DNA of 64,000 bases from Dehalococcoidia bacterium (GCA_020845735.1 JADLFF010000058.1:40368-104367), one strand, 5' to 3'; counted from the first letter of the stretch, positions 1,421 to 53,038 are shown. Translations and numbers: made by a program. Notes: generated by a model from the letters alone, not told the origin.

Positions 1421-2691
1421 GCGAACCGTCGCGCGGGAACGCCCTGTCGAGGCGCATCGCGTTCCTCCGCGAGAACGAGCACCTCGTCGCGATCTCGCTC
1501 TCGACGGTCCTCGTGATGGCGGGCCAGGGCGTGATCGCCCCGGTCCTCCCCCTCTTCGCGAGGGAGTTCGGCGTCGGCACGGCGGTGATCGGCCTGACGC
1601 TGGCCGTGTTCGGCCTCGCGCGGCTGATCCTCAACGTGCCGCTGGGCGCGCTCTCCGACCGCTACGGCCGTCGAGTGCTGCTCGTCGGCGGACCGATCGT
1701 CACCGCGGTCGGCATGGTCGGCTCGGGCTTCGCCCCAACCATCGAGACCCTGCTCGTCTGGCGGTTCGTCGCCGGAGCGGGCTCCTCGATGTACATGACC
1801 GGCGCCATGGTCTACCTGACCGACATCTCCACCTCGGAGACGCGAGCGCGCTTCATCGGCACGAACCAGGGCGCGCTGCTCATCGGAACCGCGATCGGCC
1901 CGGCGGTGGGCGGCATCGTCGCCGAGTACTGGGGGCTGCGCGCGCCGTTCCACGTGGTGGGCGTCGCGGCGCTGTTCGCGGCGGTCTACGCCTGGGCGCG
2001 CCTTCCCGAGACGCGCTCGCTGGGCGCTCAGACGGCGCCGGCAACGCAGCGCTCGACGGGTGACCGCAGCGACTGGATGGCCATGGTCCTGTCGCGGGAC
2101 TTCTTCGCGGTCGGGTTCGTGACCCTGGTGATCTTCCTGACCCGCACGGGATCGAGGCAGACGCTGGTGCCGCTCCTCGGCGAGGACGCACTCGGCCTCA
2201 GCCCCGGGGACCTCGGCGCCATCTTCACCGCGATGTCCGTGATCAACGTGATCCTCCTGACGCCCGCCGCCCTCGCTGCTGACCGGTTCGGGCGCAAGCG
2301 CGTGATCGTGCCGAGCATGCTCGCGCACGCGGTGGGACTCCTGATGTACGCCTCGGCCGACAACGTCACGATGTTCCTGCTGGCGTCGCTCGCGTTGAGC
2401 GTCGCCGCCTCGATGGCGGGGCCGGCGCCGGCTGCCTACGCCGCCGACCTGGCTCCACCCAGCGTCCGAGGCCTGGCGATGGGCCTCTACCGGACGACGG
2501 GCGACATCGGGTTCATGGTCGGCCCGCCGCTGCTGGGAGCCATGGCCGACGCGACGTCGTTTGCGTGGGGACTGACCGCCAACGCAGTCCTCGCCGCCGC
2601 CTCGGCGGTGGCCTTCCTCGTGCTCGCACGGGAGGCAGGGCAGCAGCGTCAGCCACGCGCAGCGGAGGTCTCCACCGCCGCCCGGTCGTGA
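1417..2691 (+). CDS. MFS transporter
   Basis: 12-TM hydrophobic profile with MFS motif GALSDRYGRR. ATG at 1417 overlaps the ald stop (ATGA). Confidence 0.8.
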   Translation: MSEPSRGNALSRRIAFLRENEHLVAISLSTVLVMAGQGVIAPVLPLFAREFGVGTAVIGLTLAVFGLARLILNVPLGALSDRYGRRVLLVGGPIVTAVGMVGSGFAPTIETLLVWRFVAGAGSSMYMTGAMVYLTDISTSETRARFIGTNQGALLIGTAIGPAVGGIVAEYWGLRAPFHVVGVAALFAAVYAWARLPETRSLGAQTAPATQRSTGDRSDWMAMVLSRDFFAVGFVTLVIFLTRTGSRQTLVPLLGEDALGLSPGDLGAIFTAMSVINVILLTPAALAADRFGRKRVIVPSMLAHAVGLLMYASADNVTMFLLASLALSVAASMAGPAPAAYAADLAPPSVRGLAMGLYRTTGDIGFMVGPPLLGAMADATSFAWGLTANAVLAAASAVAFLVLAREAGQQRQPRAAEVSTAARS

Positions 2692-2698
2692 CGAGGCG

Positions 2699-2923
2699 TT
2701 AGACGACGTCCCCGGAGCGGCCGCCGGAGCCCGCGCCACTCCCGAGGTCGGCGAGCATCTCCATGAAGCGCTCGCGCGTGATCTCGCCTCGAGCGTACGC
2801 GCGTCGTGCCAGCTCATCCGCCGAGGCGTCGGCGTTCACCCTCTTGCCGCGGAGCACCTCGCGAGCGAGCCACGTCACCAGCGCCGCCCAGGGCGCCCAG
2901 AGGATCACGATCAGCAACCACAT
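2699..2923 (-). CDS. small membrane protein with C-terminal SHOCT-like domain
   Basis: N-terminal TM helix (MWLLIVILWAPWAALVTWLA) followed by ELARRAYARGEITRERFMEML, typical of SHOCT. Confidence 0.4.
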   Translation of the reverse strand: MWLLIVILWAPWAALVTWLAREVLRGKRVNADASADELARRAYARGEITRERFMEMLADLGSGAGSGGRSGDVV

Positions 2924-3026
2924 GTCGCGCTCCCTCCGTCCACCCATCGAGGGTAGACCGACGGCAGCTCGAGATGTCGGGCAACAGGCCCACCACGGTC
3001 GTGACATTCGTCGGGCCGCAGCCGGG

Positions 3027-3425
3027 CTACAGGAAGCGGGCGGAGGCCGTTCCGTCGAGGAGCACCACGCCGGTGGGGTCCTCGCAGACCACGTCGTACA
3101 CAGCCAGGCCCTCGTGCGCCGACTTCAATGCGGCGCGGCAGGTGACCGAGATCGGGGGAACCGCCGGGGAGCGCCACCGCACCTTGAGCGAGCCCGTGTC
3201 CGCCCAGCGCCTCCCGAAGCCCAGCGTCATCACCTCGGAGACCAGCGCGAGCACCAGCATGCCGTGCGCCACCGGGCGGCCGAACGGGCCCTCCTCCGCC
3301 TCGGGGCTTGGACGGTGGATCGGGTTGGGATCGCGGGCCGCGAGGGCGTACCGGTCCACCATCGACTGGTCGACCAGGCGAGTCAGCGGCTGGATCACCG
3401 GGGGCTCGCCGAGCGGGAGGTTCAC
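3027..3425 (-). CDS. MaoC-like (R)-specific dehydratase, catalytic hotdog subunit (HadB-like)
   Basis: Hydratase-2 motif ...AARDPNPIH... plus GRPVAHGML. GTG start at 3425 overlaps the upstream gene's TGA (GTGA coupling). Confidence 0.65.
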   Translation of the reverse strand: MNLPLGEPPVIQPLTRLVDQSMVDRYALAARDPNPIHRPSPEAEEGPFGRPVAHGMLVLALVSEVMTLGFGRRWADTGSLKVRWRSPAVPPISVTCRAALKSAHEGLAVYDVVCEDPTGVVLLDGTASARFL

Positions 3426-3856
3426 GAGCTGGCTGCTGGCACGCGTGCCGGCAGGACGACCGTGGCGTGCCCCGTGCACACGGTGCGGTCCTCGTAGCGG
3501 AGGTCCAGCCCGACGGTCGTGTACACGGTGCCCGCGCGCTCGGCGCGGCGTTCGACCGCAATCGAGAGGTCCAGCGTCGCGTCGAAGGGCACCACCTCGA
3601 GGAAGTCGAACTCCTGCGCCGAGTGGAACACGCCCTCCGGCAACGGCATCTCGTCCATGAGCGCAGCCAGCGCCAGCGCACCGAGGGCGAGCGGCGGCAC
3701 GATGCCCGGCCAGTGCGCGTCGTCCTCCCCGGTGGCGGCGAGGTAGCGGAGGGCATCCTCGCGGGTCACGGTCACCGTCACGAGGGGCAGCACATCGCCG
3801 GTGCGGACAGCGTGGAAGTCAGTGCTCAGCGGAGACCTCCGAGCGGGCCGAGTCAC
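3422..3856 (-). CDS. non-catalytic hotdog-fold subunit (HadA/HadC-like) paired with the downstream MaoC dehydratase
   Basis: TVTREDALRYLAATGEDDAHW resembles the MaoC N-terminal half but the NPIH box is replaced. GTG at 3856 is the assumed start; a CTG at 3829 is the alternative. It overlaps the hxlR stop. Confidence 0.5.
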   Translation of the reverse strand: MTRPARRSPLSTDFHAVRTGDVLPLVTVTVTREDALRYLAATGEDDAHWPGIVPPLALGALALAALMDEMPLPEGVFHSAQEFDFLEVVPFDATLDLSIAVERRAERAGTVYTTVGLDLRYEDRTVCTGHATVVLPARVPAASS

Positions 3857-43431: not shown

Positions 43432-45114
43432 TCAGTCGGGCAGTAGCCGATCCGACATGAGCCCGCCGCTGGCCTCGAGACCGCGGAGATCGAAGATCAC
43501 GACCTCGTCATTCTCGTAGACCGGCGTGTAGCCGGAGCGGCCGCGCAACTCCTCGGCGAGGACGGCGCAGCAGTCCTCACGTAGCGAGGGCCTCGGGACT
43601 TCCTTGAACACGAAGACGTAGTCGGGGCGTCTCCAGCGGACGAACCACTCCTCGATGCACTGCGCCGAGTCGGCGTCCTGCTTCAGACAGCGCCCCGCCT
43701 CGCGGTTGGCGAGCCAGCGCGGGTAGTAGGCCCCTGCGACCCATTCGTAGCCTGGCACGGTCGTGACGCTACGTCGCTCGGAAAGTGCGGGGAACCACTC
43801 GAGGCCCGGCTCCCATGCCTGAGCATGCATCACGAGGAACGTGCTCTCCGGCGGCGTGCTCTCGCGCGCCCACTCCATCGCCTGACGCTGCGGCGCGGAG
43901 AGTGCCGCGGCAAGGCCCGCCACGACCGGAGCCTGCACACCGAGGAAGGCGCCCACCAGGACGAAGCCGGTGAACAACACCGACGTCGGCATGCGACTGA
44001 GTACGCCCACCGACATCGCCCCCCGGGACGCCTCGAATCGCCGCCACGCCTCGGCCATACCGAGACCGGCGAGCAACGCGACCGGGACCGCCGACATCTG
44101 GTGCTCGCCTCGGATCTGGATGGTGAAGACAGCAGCCAACACCAGTGGTGCGAAGTACTCGCGTCTGCGGAGTGAATGGTAGATGCCGAACACAGCGAAC
44201 GCGCTGAACACAGGGAACAGCTCGCCGCCCCAGATCGGAATGAAGAGACGAACGACGACGCCACCGGGAACGAAGACCTGCGTACTTCCGTCGAGGACCG
44301 CGCCAAACACCTCGAAGCCGTGTTGCTGGACAACGGGGACCCACCACACCGCGGCAACGAGGACTGAGGCCAGGCCGGCAGCCATCGAAGCGACGGTCGC
44401 GCGCCGTGTCCGCCCCAGAGTCAGCAGGAGCGCAAGCGAACCGTGCGCCCCGAACAACGACCAGTCTGTGTGCGAGAGAAGCAGCAGGCCGCCTGCAAGC
44501 ATGGCTCCGGCCAGGTACCGCACACGGTACGTCTGGTAGTACCGCGCCAGAGTCGCGAGCAGCAGCATCGCGAACAGACAACCGAGGGAACGCGTCAGCC
44601 CTCCGCCCGCGGCCTGCCAGGCGTACGTGCCGGGAAGACTGGCGAACGCGGCGGTGCTGAGCCAGGCGACGCGCGGCTCCGAGGTCACGGAGTGGGCAAG
44701 CCAGGCGAACGCGGCGACCGCGAGCGCGCAGACAATCGCGGGCTGCAGCCAGAGGAAATCGAGCACCGGAATACCCGTGATCGATGAGAGGAACCCCACC
44801 TCGTAGAACGCGAGCGGTGGGTACGCGAATGGGATCTGACCTCCGTCGTACGACGCAAACGCGGGGAGGCGGAACCCATTCAACTGCAGGTCACGAATCA
44901 TGAGGTAGAAGAGCCCGCCGTCGAGACGTGGGAAGTCGGTGGACACGGCCCAGCCGATCCGAATCACCGCGCCGAGGGCGATGGCGAGCAGGGTGGGGGC
45001 GTAGCGGCGTGCCCATGCTCCTCGAGGGGTGGGGGCGGGGAACGGGAGGATGCGCGCGCCCTCGAGGGGTGACGGCTGCACGGCACGCTGACGCACGACC
45101 CCTCCTCGTGTCAT
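43432..45114 (-). CDS. polytopic membrane protein with C-terminal soluble domain, GT-C-type glycosyltransferase suspected
   Basis: About 11 TM helices followed by a ~170-aa extracytoplasmic domain with conserved Cys pairs. Architecture resembles PMT/ArnT-like enzymes. Confidence 0.4.
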   Translation of the reverse strand: MTRGGVVRQRAVQPSPLEGARILPFPAPTPRGAWARRYAPTLLAIALGAVIRIGWAVSTDFPRLDGGLFYLMIRDLQLNGFRLPAFASYDGGQIPFAYPPLAFYEVGFLSSITGIPVLDFLWLQPAIVCALAVAAFAWLAHSVTSEPRVAWLSTAAFASLPGTYAWQAAGGGLTRSLGCLFAMLLLATLARYYQTYRVRYLAGAMLAGGLLLLSHTDWSLFGAHGSLALLLTLGRTRRATVASMAAGLASVLVAAVWWVPVVQQHGFEVFGAVLDGSTQVFVPGGVVVRLFIPIWGGELFPVFSAFAVFGIYHSLRRREYFAPLVLAAVFTIQIRGEHQMSAVPVALLAGLGMAEAWRRFEASRGAMSVGVLSRMPTSVLFTGFVLVGAFLGVQAPVVAGLAAALSAPQRQAMEWARESTPPESTFLVMHAQAWEPGLEWFPALSERRSVTTVPGYEWVAGAYYPRWLANREAGRCLKQDADSAQCIEEWFVRWRRPDYVFVFKEVPRPSLREDCCAVLAEELRGRSGYTPVYENDEVVIFDLRGLEASGGLMSDRLLPD

Positions 45115-45205
45115 TCGGTGGGCGCTTACGGAGACTCGACCAGCGTGCCAGCCTCGAGAAGGACCGGGGATGAGGGACGACCCGTAGCCCGCGCCGTGCG
45201 CGTCC

Positions 45206-46546
45206 CTAGGTCTTCGCGGCGCCCTCGGGGTTGCCGCGCACGATGACGAACGAGAGGGCGATGCCGAGGGCGAGCGCGCCACTGCCGACGAGCAGCGCCT
45301 GCCGGTCCATGAAGAACGCGAGGGCGACCGCGCCTCCGAGACCGACAAGCGCGGGAAGCGGCGCGGGACCAATCGAGGGGCCCGCGCGGAACGGACGAGG
45401 CCACTCGGGGTGGATCATGCGGAGGCGGATGAGCGCGGAGTTCACGACGACGAAGAGCGTGAAGACCGCGAAGTTCGTGACCTGGGCCACGAAGCCAATG
45501 TCGCCGCTGAGGGCGAAGACGAGCGCGACCGTCGTTGCGAGGGCGATCGCCACCCACGGTGTTCCTCGACGGGCCCATACTCGCCCGAAGACCGGGGGCA
45601 ACATCCCTCGACGGGCCATGCCGTACATCGCGCGCGGCCCCGTTGCGAGCAACAGGAGCACCGTGTTGAACGTCGCGAAGAGCGCGATGAGCGAGAGGGC
45701 GTCGGCCAGCCGGTCGGACGACTCCGCGCGAACCACCTCGGCGAGCGGCGCGTCCACCGAGGCGAGCGTCTGCCATGGCACCACCGACACCGCGACCGCC
45801 GCGACGAGCACGTAGATCACCGTCGTCACCGCGACGGCGATCAGCAGGGCGCGCGGGATGTTCCTGGTGGGATCGCGCACCTCCTCGGAGAGCGTGGCGA
45901 TCTCCTCGAACCCCTCATAGGCGAAGAACACGAGGGCGGCCGCGGCGAGCAGCCCGGTGGCGCCGTCGTGCACCTCGAGGAGGTTGACGGAGCCCAGGTG
46001 CGGCAGGCCGACGAGGATCACCACGATCAGCCCGCTCGCCTCGATGGCGGCGAAAATACTCGCGAGGCCCACCGTCTCGGAGACACCGAGCAGCACGATC
46101 ACCGCGCAGAGCAGCACGACCACCACGGCGATGACCGTCGGCGACACATCGATGTAGCCGGCGAGGTACCTCGCGAAGCCGAGGGCGACGGCGGGGGCCG
46201 CCACGGCGTTGACGGCGACGTCCATCCACCCCGTCACGAAGCCCACTCGAGGGCCGAACGCGACGCGGGCATAGGCGGATGCGGCGCCGGCCTCGGGGAG
46301 CAGTGCGGTCAGCTCCGCGTACGCGAGGCCCGTCCCGGCTGCGAGCAGGGCACCGACGAGGAAGGCGAGCCACACCCCGTTCCCCGCCACGCCCGCTGCC
46401 TCGCCAATGAGGACGTAGATCCCCGCGCCGAGGACGATGCCGATGCCGGACGCGGACGCACCGAGCAAGCCGATGCGACGCTGGAGCTGGCCCGCGGCGG
46501 GTTGCTCGACGGTCACGGGCGGGACACCTTGCTCATCGTTGCTCAT
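45206..46546 (-). CDS. APC superfamily amino acid permease
   Basis: 12-TM profile with an APC signature region (GIGIVLGAGIYVLIGEAAG). Confidence 0.8.
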   Translation of the reverse strand: MSNDEQGVPPVTVEQPAAGQLQRRIGLLGASASGIGIVLGAGIYVLIGEAAGVAGNGVWLAFLVGALLAAGTGLAYAELTALLPEAGAASAYARVAFGPRVGFVTGWMDVAVNAVAAPAVALGFARYLAGYIDVSPTVIAVVVVLLCAVIVLLGVSETVGLASIFAAIEASGLIVVILVGLPHLGSVNLLEVHDGATGLLAAAALVFFAYEGFEEIATLSEEVRDPTRNIPRALLIAVAVTTVIYVLVAAVAVSVVPWQTLASVDAPLAEVVRAESSDRLADALSLIALFATFNTVLLLLATGPRAMYGMARRGMLPPVFGRVWARRGTPWVAIALATTVALVFALSGDIGFVAQVTNFAVFTLFVVVNSALIRLRMIHPEWPRPFRAGPSIGPAPLPALVGLGGAVALAFFMDRQALLVGSGALALGIALSFVIVRGNPEGAAKT

Positions 46547-46703: not shown

Positions 46704-47516
46704 ATGATGGCGCTGTGGATAACAGAGCAGGGAGTGCTGGTGCAGACCGAGCAGCTTGTCCTGGCCGTCGACGACGAACCAGCCTCGCTGCGAGTCGTGA
46801 AGATCTGCCTCCGCGAGGAGGGGTTCCGGGTCCTCACGGCAGGCTCCGCTGACGAGGCGCTCCGCCTCGCGGAGCAGTACCGGCCGGACGTCGCCGTCCT
46901 CGATGTGATGATGCCGGGCACCGACGGCCTTGAGTTGATGCGCGAGCTGCGCGCGCGCAGCAGCCTGCCGGTGATCCTGCTCACGGGACGCTCGGGCGAT
47001 CGAGACAAGGTGAACGGCCTCGACCTCGGGGCCGACGACTACCTTGTCAAGCCGTTCAACCCGGAGGAGCTGGGAGCGCGGGTGCGCGCGGTGCTGCGAC
47101 GGAGCACGGCGAGCGTGCATCCACCGCAGATCGTGCAGGTCGGCGACCTGGAGATCGACCTCGACCGGCGCCTCGTGAAGCGCGGGGGCGAGCTGATCGC
47201 GCTCACGCGCACGGAGTGGATGCTGCTGCACCACCTAGCCGCGAACCCGGGCAAGGTCATGCTCAACACCGAGCTGCTCACGAAGGTCTGGGGCACCGAG
47301 TACCGCGAGGACTTCCAGTACCTGCGTGTGTGGGTCTCTCGCCTGCGGAGAAAGCTCGGCGACTTTGAGCTGATCCGGACGTTCCAGGGCATCGGCTACA
47401 TGCTCGTCCTCCAGCCCGGCGAAGGTGACGAGGCACGCGTGCTCGTCGAGAGCCGGGACGAGCTGCCGGAAGCTGAGACGATCACTGAGCCCGCGCCCAT
47501 CACTCGAGCAAGCTGA
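46704..47516 (+). CDS. OmpR/KdpE-family response regulator
   Basis: Receiver domain (VLAVDDEP...VAVLDVMMPG...) plus winged-helix output domain (YLRVWVSRLRRKLG). Confidence 0.85.
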   Translation: MMALWITEQGVLVQTEQLVLAVDDEPASLRVVKICLREEGFRVLTAGSADEALRLAEQYRPDVAVLDVMMPGTDGLELMRELRARSSLPVILLTGRSGDRDKVNGLDLGADDYLVKPFNPEELGARVRAVLRRSTASVHPPQIVQVGDLEIDLDRRLVKRGGELIALTRTEWMLLHHLAANPGKVMLNTELLTKVWGTEYREDFQYLRVWVSRLRRKLGDFELIRTFQGIGYMLVLQPGEGDEARVLVESRDELPEAETITEPAPITRAS

Positions 47517-47691
47517 GCGGGCTTCGTGGACCGGCGATAGCGGCCGGCGTCCTCGGCATGGCTCCCTGTCCGATGATTATGTATTGACACCTCGGGGTAA
47601 CGTGTCTGGAGGACATGGAGTCGTTGCCGCCCTCGCACGCGCGATACGTGCATTGACGGGCACACGGAATCGGCGAGGGAGCGCTGCACGC

Positions 47692-49173
47692 ATGGATGAC
47701 GCCCCCACGCGCGTCCTCGAGTCTGCGATCGCCGACGCCGCTGCACCACTCCTGGTCGTCGCCGAGGGAGGCCCTGTCCTCGCGGCCAACGAGGCGTTTC
47801 GGGCGACGTTTGGCGCACCGCCGGACGACCTCGATGGGTTGCGCCTGCTGAGCGCGGAGCCGGTGAGCGACGACGCCTCGAGTGTCGACCTCCCGGCGCT
47901 GTTGCGCGAGGCGAAGCCGGCGAGCGGCATCGCGCTGCTGCGAACTATCAACGGTGAGCCTGTCAGGACCGGTTACAGCGTCACGCCCCTCGGTGAAGGC
48001 GCGCCGTACCACGGCGCCATCCTCGCGCTGCAGCCCCTGGAGGCTCCGTCGCTGACCCCCGAGCCTGCCTTCACCGCCCTCGCCGAGTCGGCGCCGTGCA
48101 TCGCGTGGGTCGCGTCAGTCGATGGTGCCGTGCTGTTCCGCAATCGCGAGTGGGACGCGGGCGGACCGGTCGGGCCGACCTCTGCCCCACTGACGGCGCT
48201 CCATCCTGACGACATCGAGCGTTGCCGCGGCCTCTGGGAGTCGGCGCTGCGCGAGGGCGTGATGTACGAGGCGGTCGCGCGGCATCGGGTGGACGACACC
48301 TATCGCGAGTTCCTGACGCGCGCGGCGCCCCTGACGAACGAGATCGGTGAGGTCGTCGCCTGGTTCGGAACCACCACCGACCTCGAGCCGGTGAACGCGG
48401 TCGAGCGGTCGAGCGGCGAGCGGGGGGACGGCGAGGGGGGCGGTGACCGCGAGAGCAAGACCGTCCTCGCGGTCGCGTCGCACGAGCTGCGCGCACCCCT
48501 CGCGGTGCTGCGCGGGATGGCGCAGATCACCCGCCGGCGCTCGGAGCAGCAGCAGTTGAGTGACCGCGAGCTGCGGGAGGCCCTCGCGATGATCGAGGGA
48601 CAGGCCGACCGAACGTTGCTGCTCGTCGAGCAACTCCTCGACCACGCACGCCTCGGTGTGGGGAAGCTCGAGCTCCAGCGCGGCAAGTGCGACGTGACGA
48701 ACCTCGTGCGCGGCGTGGTCGACCGCGTGAACGCAGCGCACGAAGGACGGGTCATCGAGGTGCGGGCCGCGGGGCCGGTGACGGCGAGTGTCGACGCGCC
48801 ACGCATCGAGCAGGTGCTGATGAACCTCCTCGACAACGCGATCAAGTTCAGCCCGGCCGACAGTCGCATCGACGTCCGGGTGGTCCGCGTCGTGAGTGGC
48901 GAGGACGAGGTCGCCGAGATCGCCGTCCGCGACCGCGGTCGGGGGATTCCGGTGAGTGAGCGCTCGCTGATCTTCGAGCGCTTCCACCAGGTGACGAGCG
49001 ACGACGCCTCGAAGGGGATGGGCCTCGGACTGGCGATCTGCAAGGAGATCGTGGAGCTGCACGGCGGGACGCTCTCGGTGGGTACGCCGCGCGGCGGAGG
49101 TGCTCGCTTTGTCGTGCGCCTGCCCGTGACGCAGCCGGCGGAGCTGCAGCGGCCGCACGGGGCGAGTCGCTAG
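47692..49173 (+). CDS. cytoplasmic PAS-domain sensor histidine kinase
   Basis: No TM segments. PAS-like regions, H-box VASHELRAPLAVL, N-box MNLLDNAIKFS, G1 RDRGRGIP, G2 GMGLGLAICK. Confidence 0.8.
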   Translation: MDDAPTRVLESAIADAAAPLLVVAEGGPVLAANEAFRATFGAPPDDLDGLRLLSAEPVSDDASSVDLPALLREAKPASGIALLRTINGEPVRTGYSVTPLGEGAPYHGAILALQPLEAPSLTPEPAFTALAESAPCIAWVASVDGAVLFRNREWDAGGPVGPTSAPLTALHPDDIERCRGLWESALREGVMYEAVARHRVDDTYREFLTRAAPLTNEIGEVVAWFGTTTDLEPVNAVERSSGERGDGEGGGDRESKTVLAVASHELRAPLAVLRGMAQITRRRSEQQQLSDRELREALAMIEGQADRTLLLVEQLLDHARLGVGKLELQRGKCDVTNLVRGVVDRVNAAHEGRVIEVRAAGPVTASVDAPRIEQVLMNLLDNAIKFSPADSRIDVRVVRVVSGEDEVAEIAVRDRGRGIPVSERSLIFERFHQVTSDDASKGMGLGLAICKEIVELHGGTLSVGTPRGGGARFVVRLPVTQPAELQRPHGASR

Positions 49174-49183
49174 CGGGACCGGA

Positions 49184-49561
49184 CTACCGAGGAGGCAACT
49201 GCCGCCGCACTGCATCGAGCATGCGGTCCACGTCGACGGGCTTGACGAGCCGCTCTGCGGCCCACGGCAACTCATCGAGGGACGCCACGACATCGGCGGA
49301 GAGCACGACGAGGGGGGCCGGGGCTGCCGTGCGCGCTCGGTACTCCCGAGCGAACGTGCTGCCGGTCATGCCGGGCATGTGCAGGTCGAGCAGGATGACA
49401 TCGGGCTGTGGAGCGCCGTCCGTGCCGAGCCAGGACAGGGCGCTGGCTGCGTCCTGGGTCGTGACGACCTGGAAGCCTTCGCCCTCGAACAATGCTCTTG
49501 CAACTCGACACATTCCGGGGTCATCGTCGATGACCAGAATGAGACTCGGCGTATGATCCAT
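49184..49561 (-). CDS. single-domain CheY-like response regulator
   Basis: LILVIDDDP...VILLDLHMPGMTG...LVVLSA...KP receiver motifs; no output domain. Confidence 0.75.
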   Translation of the reverse strand: MDHTPSLILVIDDDPGMCRVARALFEGEGFQVVTTQDAASALSWLGTDGAPQPDVILLDLHMPGMTGSTFAREYRARTAAPAPLVVLSADVVASLDELPWAAERLVKPVDVDRMLDAVRRQLPPR

Positions 49562-50408
49562 GCACTCTTCCGGCTCGAGGGGTGCACGGGGGCACCCGCG
49601 ATTTACGGATTATAGAGTGCGGCGCGGCGCGACCGCGGTCAGGGAGACTCACACGAACGGACTCGTCGACGGGGACCTGCCGGACCACCGAGTCATTGCC
49701 AGCGCGCCATCGACGGAGGCAGCCGATCGCGAAGAGCTGCTGGCGCGCGGCGCCCACGAACTCCTGAATCCACTTGCCAATGTCCTGGGCTTCGCGCACG
49801 TGCTCAACCGGCTGGCGGCGAACCGCCCGGCCGACTGGAGCCCCGAGTCTCGCACCAGCATCTCGATGCTGGTGAGCGAGGCGGAGCGGCTGAAGACCGT
49901 GAGCGAGGCCTTTGTGGAGCTGCTGCGCCTGCGTGACGGCGTGTTCCGCCTCGCGACGAGCGACGTGGAGGTGGACGCGCTGGTCCACGAGGAGGTGCGA
50001 GCGCTGGGGCGCCGCTGGCCCGGTGTGCGCATCAACGAGGAGTACGGCGAGACGACCGCCGTGCTCCGCACCGACGAGGTGCGCTTGCGCTTCGTGATCC
50101 GCGCCATCCTCGACAGTGCGGCGCGGTCGCTATCGGGAGCGCCGGGGCGCGTGAGCGTGTCGCGGTCACCGATCGGTGGGGCGCGCATCGGTGTGCGGGT
50201 GCCGGTGCTCGAGGCGCAGGCGGCGGCCCTCATTGTCGGTGGGGGGTTCGACGACCCGGCGCTGGACGAGGAGCTCGCCGGTGACCTGGACCTCGCTTCT
50301 GCGGTGACGCGGAAGATCGCGCGCCACCTCGGGCTTTCGATCGCGCTGGTGCGGCAGGCCGGCCAGGTGGGCGCCGACATGGTGATCTCGATCCCGCCCT
50401 CGGTCTGA
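49560..50408 (+). CDS. degenerate histidine kinase-like protein (H-box retained, ATP-lid motifs eroded)
   Basis: H-box GAHELLNPLANVLGF is present. The N-box is replaced by RAILDSAARS (both Asn lost), there is no DxGxG G1 box, and only an HLGLSIAL remnant of G2. True start is probably downstream of 49560, for example GTG at 49617. Confidence 0.5.
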   Translation: MHSSGSRGARGHPRFTDYRVRRGATAVRETHTNGLVDGDLPDHRVIASAPSTEAADREELLARGAHELLNPLANVLGFAHVLNRLAANRPADWSPESRTSISMLVSEAERLKTVSEAFVELLRLRDGVFRLATSDVEVDALVHEEVRALGRRWPGVRINEEYGETTAVLRTDEVRLRFVIRAILDSAARSLSGAPGRVSVSRSPIGGARIGVRVPVLEAQAAALIVGGGFDDPALDEELAGDLDLASAVTRKIARHLGLSIALVRQAGQVGADMVISIPPSV

Positions 50409-50481: not shown

Positions 50482-51693
50482 CTAGAACGGTGTTTCGACC
50501 GGGCGTCGTGCGTTCACGCCTCGGACGACGGCCACGCCGGTGACCACCACGACGGCGAGCATGGCCACGAGGCCAACGATCACCGACAGCCATGCGGGGC
50601 CGGCGGACAGCGCGGGCGGCGGCTCGTCGGGAGTGGTGGCGAAGGCCTCGAGGCGTTGCACCGTGGCAGGGGCGTGCCCCGAAGTGTAGTCGGCGAGCAC
50701 CTCGAGGGCGCGCGTGCCGAGCTTGCCGCTGGGCTCGATCTGCGTGTTCTCGTCGAACTCGTTCCAGCTGATGATGCCGAGTGCGTCCGGCCGAGACTCC
50801 AGTGCCGTGTCGATGGCCTCGATGAACGTGCGCCCCTCGAAGCGATCGATGACACGCGTGGCGCCGAGGAGGGACGCGTCGAAGCCCGGCGCGGCCGGAG
50901 CGATCCACATCCCCTTGCCGACCGCCTCGCGGAGGCTGAGCAGCCGCGCGACGTGCGCCTCGCGGCGGCTCGGATCGGCGGACGACCAGTAGTAGGCGTT
51001 GCCATCGAGGACGGACGCGACTCGCGCGTAGCCGTCGGCGTCGCGCTCGGATCCGAGCAGCAGCATGCCGAGGGGCTGCCCCGGGTCGCTGGGATCGCGC
51101 GGGTGCGCCAGGCGGTGCTGTCCGGAGAGGATCGTGAGGTCATCGAGCGAGTACTCCCACGTGCCGTCGATGATCACGAGGGGCTGGCCGAACACATCGA
51201 AGACCGGGTCGCGTGCCCAGCGCTCGGCGAAGAAGTCAAGGTCCGCAGCGACCTGGGCGATGGACACCGGACGGCGGTTCTCATCGAGAGCCGCGTAGTG
51301 GATCGCGAGCTTGAAGTTCTGGGAGCGCGCTTCCTGCACGAGCAGGTCGAGCGCGTGGTTGAGCACCTCGTTGGAGTGCCAGTGGACGATGAACGCGCGG
51401 ACCCCGGCGTCCCGGGCCATGCGAATGTGCTCTCGAATGGCCTCGGGGGAATCGCTGGTGTAGCGGCCGAGGGCGGGGATGTCACGCTTGTGCTGCCACC
51501 ACGACTCGTTGGTGTGGGAGATGAAGTAGTAGGCCATGACGGGCACGTTCACGCGCGCCTGCTCGACAGGACGGGGCGGGGCGTCGGGCCGAGGCGCACG
51601 TGCCGCCATCGAGGGGCGCAGGGTCACGGCGCAGACGGCGACGGCCACCGTGACCGCGACGAGAACGAACGCGGCGCGCCCGGCGCTAGGCAC
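50482..51693 (-). CDS. membrane-anchored glycoside hydrolase, GH99 (endo-alpha-mannosidase)-like
   Basis: N-terminal signal anchor. YYFISHT...LGRYTSDSPEAIREHIRMARDAGVRAFIVHWH resembles the GH99 block around the catalytic region. C-terminal TM helix. Confidence 0.4.
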   Translation of the reverse strand: MPSAGRAAFVLVAVTVAVAVCAVTLRPSMAARAPRPDAPPRPVEQARVNVPVMAYYFISHTNESWWQHKRDIPALGRYTSDSPEAIREHIRMARDAGVRAFIVHWHSNEVLNHALDLLVQEARSQNFKLAIHYAALDENRRPVSIAQVAADLDFFAERWARDPVFDVFGQPLVIIDGTWEYSLDDLTILSGQHRLAHPRDPSDPGQPLGMLLLGSERDADGYARVASVLDGNAYYWSSADPSRREAHVARLLSLREAVGKGMWIAPAAPGFDASLLGATRVIDRFEGRTFIEAIDTALESRPDALGIISWNEFDENTQIEPSGKLGTRALEVLADYTSGHAPATVQRLEAFATTPDEPPPALSAGPAWLSVIVGLVAMLAVVVVTGVAVVRGVNARRPVETPF

Positions 51694-53038
51694 TGGCGGG
51701 CTCCACTCGAGTGGCCCTCCTGAGGCTCAGCGCGGTCAGCACGCCCGCTGCGACGACCGCACCGCCATAGAGGAGGTACGTCGGGAGATAGGACGAGCGC
51801 GTCACGGTCTCCCGGCGCGTGCTCGAGAGGAAGACCGGGGACCTCGGTGGCACGGTGAAGTCGAGAGCCTCGCGAATGCTGTTCGCCCGCGCATCCCGGG
51901 TGGCGAGCGGTTGCAGGTCCCAGTTCTCCTCGATGAAGCGCAGGAACGAGGTGAAGTCGAGCTCTGTGTGGTCCACCACGCCCTCGCGAGCGTAGGCCGA
52001 GACGAGGAGCGCGGGGACTCGGAACCCGTAGCCGTCGCGGTCGACCTCCGGCGGAGCGACGTGGTCGTACCAGCCTCCGGCGCTGTCGTAGGTCCAGGCG
52101 AACGCAGCCGTCTCCCAGTACCGCGAGCGCATGAGCGTCGTGACGAGGTTGCGCACCAGCGACTGCCCCGCGGCGATGCTGCCCGGCGGGTGTTCACTCG
52201 AGCTGGCCGGGACCACATAGGCGACGTTCGGGAGCGAACCGCGCTCGAGGTCGGCGAAGTACTCGGAGAGGTCGACGATGCGCCCGTTGAGGACGGGGTC
52301 GTCGAGGAAGCGATCGATGGCGAGGAGCGGCACCCAGGAGACCTGTGCACGGCGGTTCGGGGGCGCGCTCGCGAGCGTGCGGTAGGTGACGGAGGGGTCG
52401 TAGTCCTCGACGTAGACCTTCCACGACACGCCGGCCTGGCTGAGGCGGTCGAAGATCGTGGGGATGTTGGCGGGCACCCCTCGAGGCGGAACGGCGTCGA
52501 GACCGGCGCTCGTCCCGGCCATCCAGAACATGTGGTTGGCGAAGCTGCCGCCCGTCGACGACTGGAAGAAGCGATCGAAGAGCACGAAGTTGTCGGCGAC
52601 GTTCCAGTAGTACGGGATGTCCTCCCCGTCGTAGTGGCCCATCGTGGGGTGCACCGTCGAGCCGGGCTGGAGCGCGGCCGCCACGAACCCGTTCATCTGG
52701 CCGTCGCGGAACTGCGCGCGGAACGCGGCGGCATCGTGGGGGAGGTCACGCGCAGGACTCATGCCCAGGCGGAACGGACGGACACACTCCGAGTCCGCGC
52801 GATCCGGCGCGATGGGCACGCAGGTGTCACGCGGGACACCATCGGCGCCGGGGTAGGAGCCGAAGTAGTTGTCGAACGAGTGGTTCTGCTGCATGAGGAC
52901 GATGAAGTGCTCGATGGGTGTGCGCGGTGGGCGGGCGGCCTGCGCGTCGGCCGGGCTCGCCTCGGGAGGAGCGAGCAGCACGACCGCCGCAAGCGTCGTG
53001 ACCAGCAGCACGAGGGCGAGCCTGACCGCGGCCGGCAT
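51686..53038 (-). CDS. phosphoesterase family protein (phospholipase C / AcpA acid phosphatase family), membrane anchored
   Basis: IEHFIVLMQQNHSFDNYFGSYPGADG is the PF04185 signature. Signal peptide and a C-terminal TM helix. Confidence 0.7.
   Translation of the reverse strand: MPAAVRLALVLLVTTLAAVVLLAPPEASPADAQAARPPRTPIEHFIVLMQQNHSFDNYFGSYPGADGVPRDTCVPIAPDRADSECVRPFRLGMSPARDLPHDAAAFRAQFRDGQMNGFVAAALQPGSTVHPTMGHYDGEDIPYYWNVADNFVLFDRFFQSSTGGSFANHMFWMAGTSAGLDAVPPRGVPANIPTIFDRLSQAGVSWKVYVEDYDPSVTYRTLASAPPNRRAQVSWVPLLAIDRFLDDPVLNGRIVDLSEYFADLERGSLPNVAYVVPASSSEHPPGSIAAGQSLVRNLVTTLMRSRYWETAAFAWTYDSAGGWYDHVAPPEVDRDGYGFRVPALLVSAYAREGVVDHTELDFTSFLRFIEENWDLQPLATRDARANSIREALDFTVPPRSPVFLSSTRRETVTRSSYLPTYLLYGGAVVAAGVLTALSLRRATRVEPASA

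Follow-up and report, generated by a model that had tools for sequence, protein, structure and literature searches.

How can a protein that descends from a histidine kinase, but has lost the motifs for binding ATP, still be retained by selection within a two-component signalling cluster, and what might it do there? This question is raised by a 64,000-nucleotide stretch of DNA from a Dehalococcoidia bacterium (Chloroflexota; GCA_020845735.1 JADLFF010000058.1:40368-104367), referred to here in its full length as the window, whose G+C content is about 70%. Between 46.7 and 50.4 kb, at coordinates that agree with those of an earlier note made from the sequence alone, lie four two-component genes in the order RR(+), HK(+), REC(-), pHK(+), where RR denotes an OmpR-type regulator, HK a PAS histidine kinase, REC a stand-alone receiver and pHK a kinase-dead HisKA protein. 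The last of these is an independently degenerated HisKA kinase that constitutes the non-ATP hub of a four-component system, representing a new example rather than a new principle. The answer favoured here, with a probability of roughly 45%, is that the four proteins may form a system with a division of labour, in which pHK would act on the receivers and so complement a kinase that is poor in phosphatase activity. REC and pHK correspond to GenBank entries MCC6237402.1 and MCC6237403.1 of a metagenome-assembled genome (MAG), and a membrane helix is predicted in none of the four proteins. The cluster consists of the following parts.

46740-47516, plus strand: RR, a receiver and a winged-helix DNA-binding domain (open reading frame 46704-47516, which opens at ATG 46704)
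47692-49173, plus strand: HK, a soluble PAS-PAS-HisKA-HATPase_c protein (open reading frame 47425-49173)
49184-49561, minus strand: REC, a stand-alone receiver of 125 aa
49562-49666, no strand assigned: divergent control region between REC and pHK, conserved as DNA across lineages
49617-50408, plus strand: pHK, 263 aa when begun at the annotated GTG 49617 (open reading frame from 49560)

Loss of the ATP-binding motifs and selection on pHK

In the Pfam scan, pHK matched HisKA only (E 9.9e-08, 32.4 bits against a cut-off of 26.9), with no HATPase_c match even at E<=1. Comparison by alignment with the nearest intact kinases (A3) and with ZraS demonstrates CA-domain homology for the C-terminal half, which has kept the kinase fold, and the fold of a confident AlphaFold2 (AF2) model matches kinase CA domains. 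The segments of the protein are listed below.

49704-49934, plus strand: DHp hairpin, with helices at residues 30-69 and 76-106 (AF2 model and family alignment)
49749-49775, plus strand: H box GAHELLNPL, with the codon of His47 at 49755, Glu48 and Asn51
49956-50393, plus strand: pseudo-CA domain (alignments with intact kinases and with ZraS, CA fold matches)
50100-50129, plus strand: degenerate N box RAILDSAARS
50193-50219, plus strand: G1 remnant VRVPVLEAQ
50229-50252, plus strand: F remnant
50277-50300, plus strand: G2 remnant AGDLDLAS

The H-box histidine, His47, is present, as the earlier note had described, and the catalytic face H-E-x-x-N is kept. In the N box, NLLxNAxKY has become RAILDSAARS, with one Asn changed to Ala and the other to Ser; the DxGxG of the G1 box is replaced by a four-residue deletion between VRV and PVLE; the F box is gone (LIVGGGFD); and the GxGLGL of the G2 box reads AGDLDLA. 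All four changes are common to every member of the pHK family, so that the loss reported earlier for the N and G1 boxes is confirmed by alignment and extends further, to the F and G2 boxes. These comparisons show that pHK derives from a HisKA kinase and has retained the hairpin used for dimerisation and receiver docking, and, since every ATP-binding motif has been lost, the protein would be unable to autophosphorylate.

A recent tandem duplication of the adjacent HK was considered as the origin of pHK and rejected, given an identity between the two of 26% (31.6 bits, over DHp); pHK is closer to other GAF/PAS kinases with intact ATP motifs, with which it shares 30-37% identity (73-89 bits). The protein contains no hydrophobic segment, its maximum Kyte-Doolittle value over 19 residues (KD19) being 1.38. 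In GenBank it is named 'HAMP domain-containing histidine kinase', although it contains no HAMP domain and no ATPase domain.

The disappearance of all ATP motifs could also be read as decay, pHK then being a functionless remnant of a duplicated kinase gene, and the unclear start codon, over which automatic annotations disagree with products ranging from 180 to 263 aa, would fit such a reading. The ratio of nonsynonymous to synonymous substitution rates (dN/dS) makes it very improbable. Among close pairs of genomes, dN/dS of pHK amounts to 0.13, 0.087 and 0.17, which is below the values of the catalytic HK (0.22-0.28) and of REC (0.17-0.22) and near those of RR (0.07-0.09), showing that pHK is under strong purifying selection. 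Moreover, the pHK reading frame is intact in every lineage, with indels upstream of the His in multiples of three, the AF2 model is confident, and the same neighbours are kept across lineages whose pHK proteins are only about 60% identical. With dN/dS at 0.09-0.17 and the frame conserved, the idea of a frame-shifted pseudogene, which the earlier note had named as a possible objection, is effectively refuted.

Conservation of the cluster and the lineage without a receiver

The pHK family is small. A search of 5.8 billion proteins gave 10 clusters, each of them from Chloroflexota metagenome assemblies, and one of 1.84 billion gave 3 representatives at E<1e-30; the family further has members in 2 of 185,579 species genomes, both of which are Chloroflexota MAGs. 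A metagenome scan yielded no further pHK lineages, returning two additional contigs from the same species group and otherwise ordinary kinases. Short DHp+CA proteins among the distant matches (P0018, P0022, P0033 and others) retain intact ATP motifs and were therefore placed outside the family.

The family divides into four deep lineages. The order RR, HK, REC on the opposite strand and pHK is found in three of the four (the window with L004 and L012; L006, L007 and L008; and L003), so that the arrangement proposed from the single locus is conserved in related genomes. In L003, positions 2049-3749 hold a Big_7/metallophosphoesterase gene and a small opposite-strand open reading frame inserted between RR and HK, which breaks the usual adjacency of these two genes and leaves REC and pHK in place. 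The fourth lineage (L001, L010 and P0011) encodes RR, HK and pHK on one strand, the latter two lying only about 95 nt apart, and has no REC gene.

It is in exactly this REC-less lineage that Gln replaces the phospho-acceptor His of pHK (GAQELLS/NPL), a substitution seen in three clusters (P0008, P0009 and P0011) and in several samples. Wherever REC is present, H-E-L/V-L-N is invariant, and the REC-less lineage has Q-E-L-L-S/N; the Asn at the +4 position is kept everywhere, save for a Ser in one of the Gln variants. Because the His and REC were lost together, in what is a single event, the His would be functionally tied to REC. Selection was maintained after this event, with a dN/dS of 0.17 for pHK in the Gln-bearing lineage, and the protein of this lineage should therefore have a further role for which neither His nor REC is needed. 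Since RR, HK and pHK all remain intact in that lineage, it also follows that HK must serve RR directly there. Across lineages, the alpha1 helices of pHK (the one that docks receivers) and RR are nearly invariant, and those of HK and REC vary.

Proposed phosphoryl flow and known counterparts

The two genes at the head of the cluster have the features of a complete two-component pair. RR belongs to the OmpR family by its Pfam matches to Response_reg (1.3e-30) and Trans_reg_C (5.1e-19); its C-terminus (47400-47516) forms a variable acidic tail of about 35 residues beyond the winged-helix domain, which ends in '...RAS' in all six orthologues. HK contains two PAS regions, HisKA (6.6e-12) and HATPase_c (5.7e-30, 104 bits), and no fused Response_reg domain was found by Pfam, so that it is not a hybrid kinase. 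Orthologue alignment bears out the description of its catalytic boxes as intact (SHELRAPL, NLLDNAIKF, DRGRGI, FERF and GMGLGL). The H box SHELRAPL, at 48478-48501, carries Ala at His+4, and this position is occupied by Ala in the window and L004, Gly in L003 and L001, and Thr in L006/7, that is, by Ala or Gly in three of the four lineages. Among 132 related kinases, a background sample fetched with the pHK profile and hence possibly biased in its residue frequencies, 129 have Thr, Ser or Asn at His+4 and 3 (about 2%) have Ala or Gly. In HisKA kinases, Thr or Asn at His+4 is required for phosphatase but not for kinase activity, and the phosphatase activity needs the His itself only modestly (Willett and Kirby, PMC3510030). 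An HK with Ala or Gly at this position is accordingly predicted from its sequence to have weak or no phosphatase activity.

REC matches Response_reg alone in Pfam (1.1e-16), and its AF2 model, with a predicted local distance difference test (pLDDT) score of 90.5, shows the canonical (beta-alpha)5 fold with a short alpha4. Its active site (D12/D13, the phospho-acceptor D59, S88 and K107-P108) is intact and conserved in orthologue alignments, and Arg104 takes the place of the aromatic switch residue of beta5 in all orthologues. The FATGUY motif, sought at beta4 and the following loop of REC and its orthologues, is absent, beta4 reading PLVVLSADV. The lack of the beta5 aromatic residue is compatible with the Rec_inter class, although it does not define that class (cf. 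PMC9981736). The GenBank product of 109 aa is called from Met17, which cuts off the conserved acidic pair D12/D13.

On the basis of the domain content, motif loss, synteny, selection and joint loss of His and REC described above, a scheme can be proposed in which each phosphoryl-transfer step is inferred. The PAS kinase would be the only ATP-dependent phosphodonor, phosphorylating the adjacent RR directly and REC as well. In most lineages, HK lacks the Thr or Asn at His+4 that phosphatase activity needs, and pHK could supply the missing receiver-directed activity by docking phosphorylated RR (RR~P) and removing its phosphoryl group. Removal might be hydrolytic, dependent on Asn51 and independent of the His, or might proceed by back-transfer to His47 and exchange with Asp59 of REC. 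REC and pHK together would then serve as a phosphate shunt, or as a second input, that sets the level of RR~P; the idea of the earlier note that REC is a phosphate sink is one possibility among several, and phosphoryl groups might flow in either direction between REC and RR. In the REC-less lineage, where the His became Gln, only the His-independent function, either RR binding or dephosphorylation, would be left. Such a shunt would explain the conservation of H-E-x-x-N, the decay of His+4 in HK, the joint loss of His and REC, and the existence of the REC-less lineage without any rewiring.

In the main alternative, the same four parts would be arranged as a linear four-step relay of the Spo0F/Spo0B type (KinA-Spo0F-Spo0B-Spo0A), in which the phosphoryl group passes from HK to REC, then to His47 of pHK, a dimeric histidine phosphotransferase in this scheme, and finally to RR, with no significant direct transfer from HK to RR. 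All components of a His-Asp-His-Asp chain are indeed present, clustered and conserved in three lineages; HK is not a hybrid, so that a free REC would be the intermediary; REC fits a passive intermediary (PMC9981736), its active site being intact, an output domain absent and the beta5 aromatic residue replaced by Arg in all orthologues; the His and REC were lost together; and Spo0B, ChpT and PhyT are kinase-derived proteins with dead CA domains that perform the same job (PMC5898713; PMC3433190). The relay nonetheless appears rather unlikely. RR and HK are adjacent and co-oriented in the manner of a cognate pair, the REC-less lineage keeps RR, HK and a Gln-bearing pHK under purifying selection and would demand a rewiring step, the loss of the phosphatase residue of HK is left unexplained, and REC lacks the FATGUY motif of the intermediaries SdrG, MrrA and CckA-Rec (PMC9981736).

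Structural comparison points to yet another candidate, an allosteric anti-kinase that does not use its His chemically. The best profile matches of pHK in the PDB fall in the RetS kinase region (7n0e_B and 6dk7, E about 1e-4), and a Foldseek search against the PDB gave 6dk7 (E 8.6e-13) and 4q20 (E 1.1e-10), with DivL also ranking high. pHK might thus form a RetS-like DHp heterodimer that blocks trans-autophosphorylation of HK, or, in a DivL-like manner, sense phosphorylated REC on its DHp face and relay this to the kinase. Precedents exist in RetS, which blocks GacS via a DHp-DHp heterodimer (PMC8498467), in DivL, a repurposed kinase that reads phosphorylated DivK (PMC4211667), and in ChrS, a pseudokinase without a CA domain that heterodimerises with HrrS (PMC9491836); moreover, the His is dispensable in one lineage. 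The structural matches are, however, to generic kinase cores, with template modelling (TM) scores of about 0.5-0.6; the 26% identity between pHK and HK over DHp gives no sign of a shared dimer interface; pHK has neither the signalling PAS domains of DivL nor the sensor and receiver domains of RetS; and the strict H-E-x-x-N wherever REC exists, together with the joint loss of His and REC, points to phosphochemistry rather than mere binding. An anti-kinase role is accordingly regarded as quite unlikely. Because the His and REC were lost together, and because HK has lost its His+4 residue while pHK has kept its Asn, phosphatase or phosphotransfer functions are favoured. The earlier note had left the mechanism open between these functions and an anti-kinase, and the comparative data narrow that range; its broader proposal of a role beyond a simple HK-RR pair is well founded in the motif loss, the selection and the conserved arrangement.

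Several observations weigh against the proposed division of labour. The correlation between His and REC rests on one event, to which the genome, metagenome and representative searches added no other lineage, and the organism is uncultured and represented by a MAG. The HK of L006/L007 has Thr at His+4, so that a phosphatase-poor kinase is not universal, and the possible bias of the 132-kinase sample affects the background against which the other lineages stand out. In CrdS, the Glu at His+1 is needed for kinase and not for phosphatase activity, and pHK conserves a Glu at this position, which a pure phosphatase would not need. Comparisons of specificity residues, finally, are suggestive only. 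A more specific version of events, in which a bifunctional kinase has been split into a PAS kinase deficient in phosphatase activity and a kinase-dead H-E-x-x-N protein, with REC gating through the His of pHK, the receiver-less His-to-Gln lineage as the minimal form, and pHK perhaps translated from a conserved ACG start, is considered unlikely as a whole.

Among characterized systems, the cluster appears by analogy to be functionally closest to Pak-SdrG-PhyT-PhyR and to RedCDEF, while the architecture of pHK resembles that of Spo0B and ChpT. PhyT (PhyP), the partner of SdrG in the general stress response of Alphaproteobacteria, is kinase-derived like pHK, combines a degenerate ATPase domain with a conserved His, takes the phosphoryl group from SdrG, transfers it to PhyR and binds the latter as well (PMC5898713), thus providing a precedent for a protein that, as pHK would, has a single-domain receiver and a terminal regulator as its partners. 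Initially taken for a phosphatase, it was subsequently shown to be a phosphotransferase, and one with the ability to bind the regulator; kinases of that system can phosphorylate the regulator directly in vitro, and PhyT is encoded at the locus of the regulator, as is pHK (PMC5898713). PhyT differs in having a membrane anchor, a periplasmic domain and a DHp with HRxxN (HWE/HisKA_2-type), whereas pHK, a soluble HisKA protein with HExxN, lacks any sensor domain. SdrG has the FATGUY motif that REC lacks, the terminal regulator is PhyR in the one case and an OmpR-type protein in the other, and there is no specific sequence kinship.

RedCDEF of Myxococcus xanthus likewise combines, in one cluster, a real kinase, a kinase-like protein that does not autophosphorylate and two response regulators, one of which is single-receiver (PMC2755868). 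RedE performs no autophosphorylation, accepts the phosphoryl group from RedD and dephosphorylates the single-domain RedF (PMC2755868), which serves as a second precedent. RedD has two receivers and no DNA-binding domain, whereas the second regulator here is an OmpR-type transcription factor; the inability of RedE to autophosphorylate was shown by assay (PMC2755868), whereas that of pHK is deduced from motif loss; and gene order and phylum differ.

Spo0B and ChpT share with pHK a His-bearing helical hairpin followed by a C-terminal alpha/beta CA-like domain that does not bind ATP. Further parallels are KinA, which like HK is a soluble multi-PAS kinase accompanied by a free single-domain receiver, and the targets of ChpT, which are an OmpR-family regulator and a single-domain receiver. 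Membership of pHK in either family was not supported by the Pfam scan, which at E<=1 returned only HisKA, Pfam having models for both (SPOB_a/SPOB_ab and HPTransfase). No ChpT profile match was obtained, and in structure pHK is nearer to true kinases. The donor of ChpT is a hybrid kinase with a fused receiver, which HK does not have, and the His of pHK is replaceable in one lineage.

RetS and DivL resemble pHK as kinase-like proteins, and they modulate the pathway of another kinase rather than autophosphorylating; DivL, in addition, pairs with the single-domain receiver DivK. RetS carries a 7TMR-DISMED2 sensor domain and two receiver domains. This sensor and the tandem receivers are absent from pHK, so that only the kinase core is alike. 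DivL has PAS domains and a Tyr in place of the His, whereas pHK is a bare DHp and pseudo-CA protein with no PAS domain and with His47, or Gln in P0008, P0009 and P0011. To its neighbour HK, pHK is similar at family level only.

Kinase-dead relatives such as Spo0B, ChpT, PhyT, RedE, RetS and DivL act as hubs that turn linear two-component pairs into networks, and the pHK family adds an independent and recent example from a poorly studied phylum. The system is compact, with four small, soluble partners whose genes lie next to one another, and the natural variant that lacks both REC and the His makes it possible to ask how a kinase becomes a phosphotransferase or a phosphatase; it also bears on the splitting of kinase and phosphatase functions between paralogues. 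Its general impact is limited by the tiny size of the family and its restriction to uncultured Chloroflexota.

Start codons, control region and neighbouring genes

The conserved start of RR is probably GTG 46740, just downstream of an AGGGAG, rather than ATG 46704, because the orthologues begin at VQTEQLVLAVDDEP. For HK, the likely start is ATG 47692, with GAGGGAG 9 nt upstream.

The start of pHK is more involved. The ATG at 49560 overlaps the ATG of REC by 2 nt, so that the overlap described in the earlier note is real as a feature of the open reading frame. Upstream of 49653, the pHK frame is not conserved: the window and L004 differ by a 2-nt indel, L004 has an in-frame TAG upstream of the position corresponding to 49653, and L006 contains no in-frame ATG, GTG or TTG anywhere before the His. 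From 49653 onwards, the His codon is reached after 88, 85, 82, 82 and 91 nt, values that differ by multiples of three. Given the unconserved frame upstream of 49653, ATG 49560 is not the conserved start. The alternative GTG 49617, which the earlier note had named as a candidate and GenBank has chosen, is possible for this genome and works for close relatives, but in the next relative it lies out of frame behind an in-frame TAG, and it would adjoin or fall inside a putative -10 box of REC. For pHK as well as for REC, the GenBank calls look wrong. Judging from the conserved positions, translation of pHK possibly begins at or near 49653, either at the non-canonical ACG 49653 or at CTG 49677. In L003 and L001, pHK has an ordinary start, GTG or ATG, located 10-13 codons upstream of the His or Gln.

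The divergent region 49562-49666, with counterparts at 3581-3689 in L004, 4711-4815 in L006, about 5830-5936 in L007 and 1-25 in L012, is more conserved as DNA than the coding sequence that follows it. ATTATA at 49609-49614 is a perfect TATAAT on the REC strand, and the Shine-Dalgarno-like AGGGAG at 49641-49646 is followed by a variable 6-nt spacer and then by the invariant 14-mer ACGAACGGACTCGT at 49653-49666, which does not vary even at third codon positions and occurs once in the window and once in each related locus. This block might double as an operator. As repeated operators elsewhere in the window, neither the 14-mer nor GACTC-N9-GACTC gave sites beyond chance. RNAalifold applied to the pHK leader returned a positive, that is unfavourable, covariation term and no convincing helix as a conserved RNA structure, and a scan for the sigma-70 consensus produced a single hit, inside the coding start of REC, with no terminators found.

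Upstream of the cluster, a 646-aa open reading frame (43432-45372, minus strand) has many hydrophobic segments and gave no Pfam match at E<=0.001; because of its overlap with the 3' end of an amino-acid permease open reading frame, its long N-terminal extension is probably not real. Downstream, 50482-53038 on the minus strand encodes a GH99-like protein and a Phosphoesterase-family protein. The conserved downstream genes of the family comprise those for a GH99-like protein, a phosphoesterase, a PMT_2 glycosyltransferase, a sugar-nucleotidyl transferase and a PGI-like protein, and the neighbourhoods of L004, L006, L008 and L012 also include a CDP-alcohol phosphatidyltransferase. These neighbours suggest an envelope-glycan context, and they may represent the regulon of the system, tied to the synthesis of envelope glycan or lipid.

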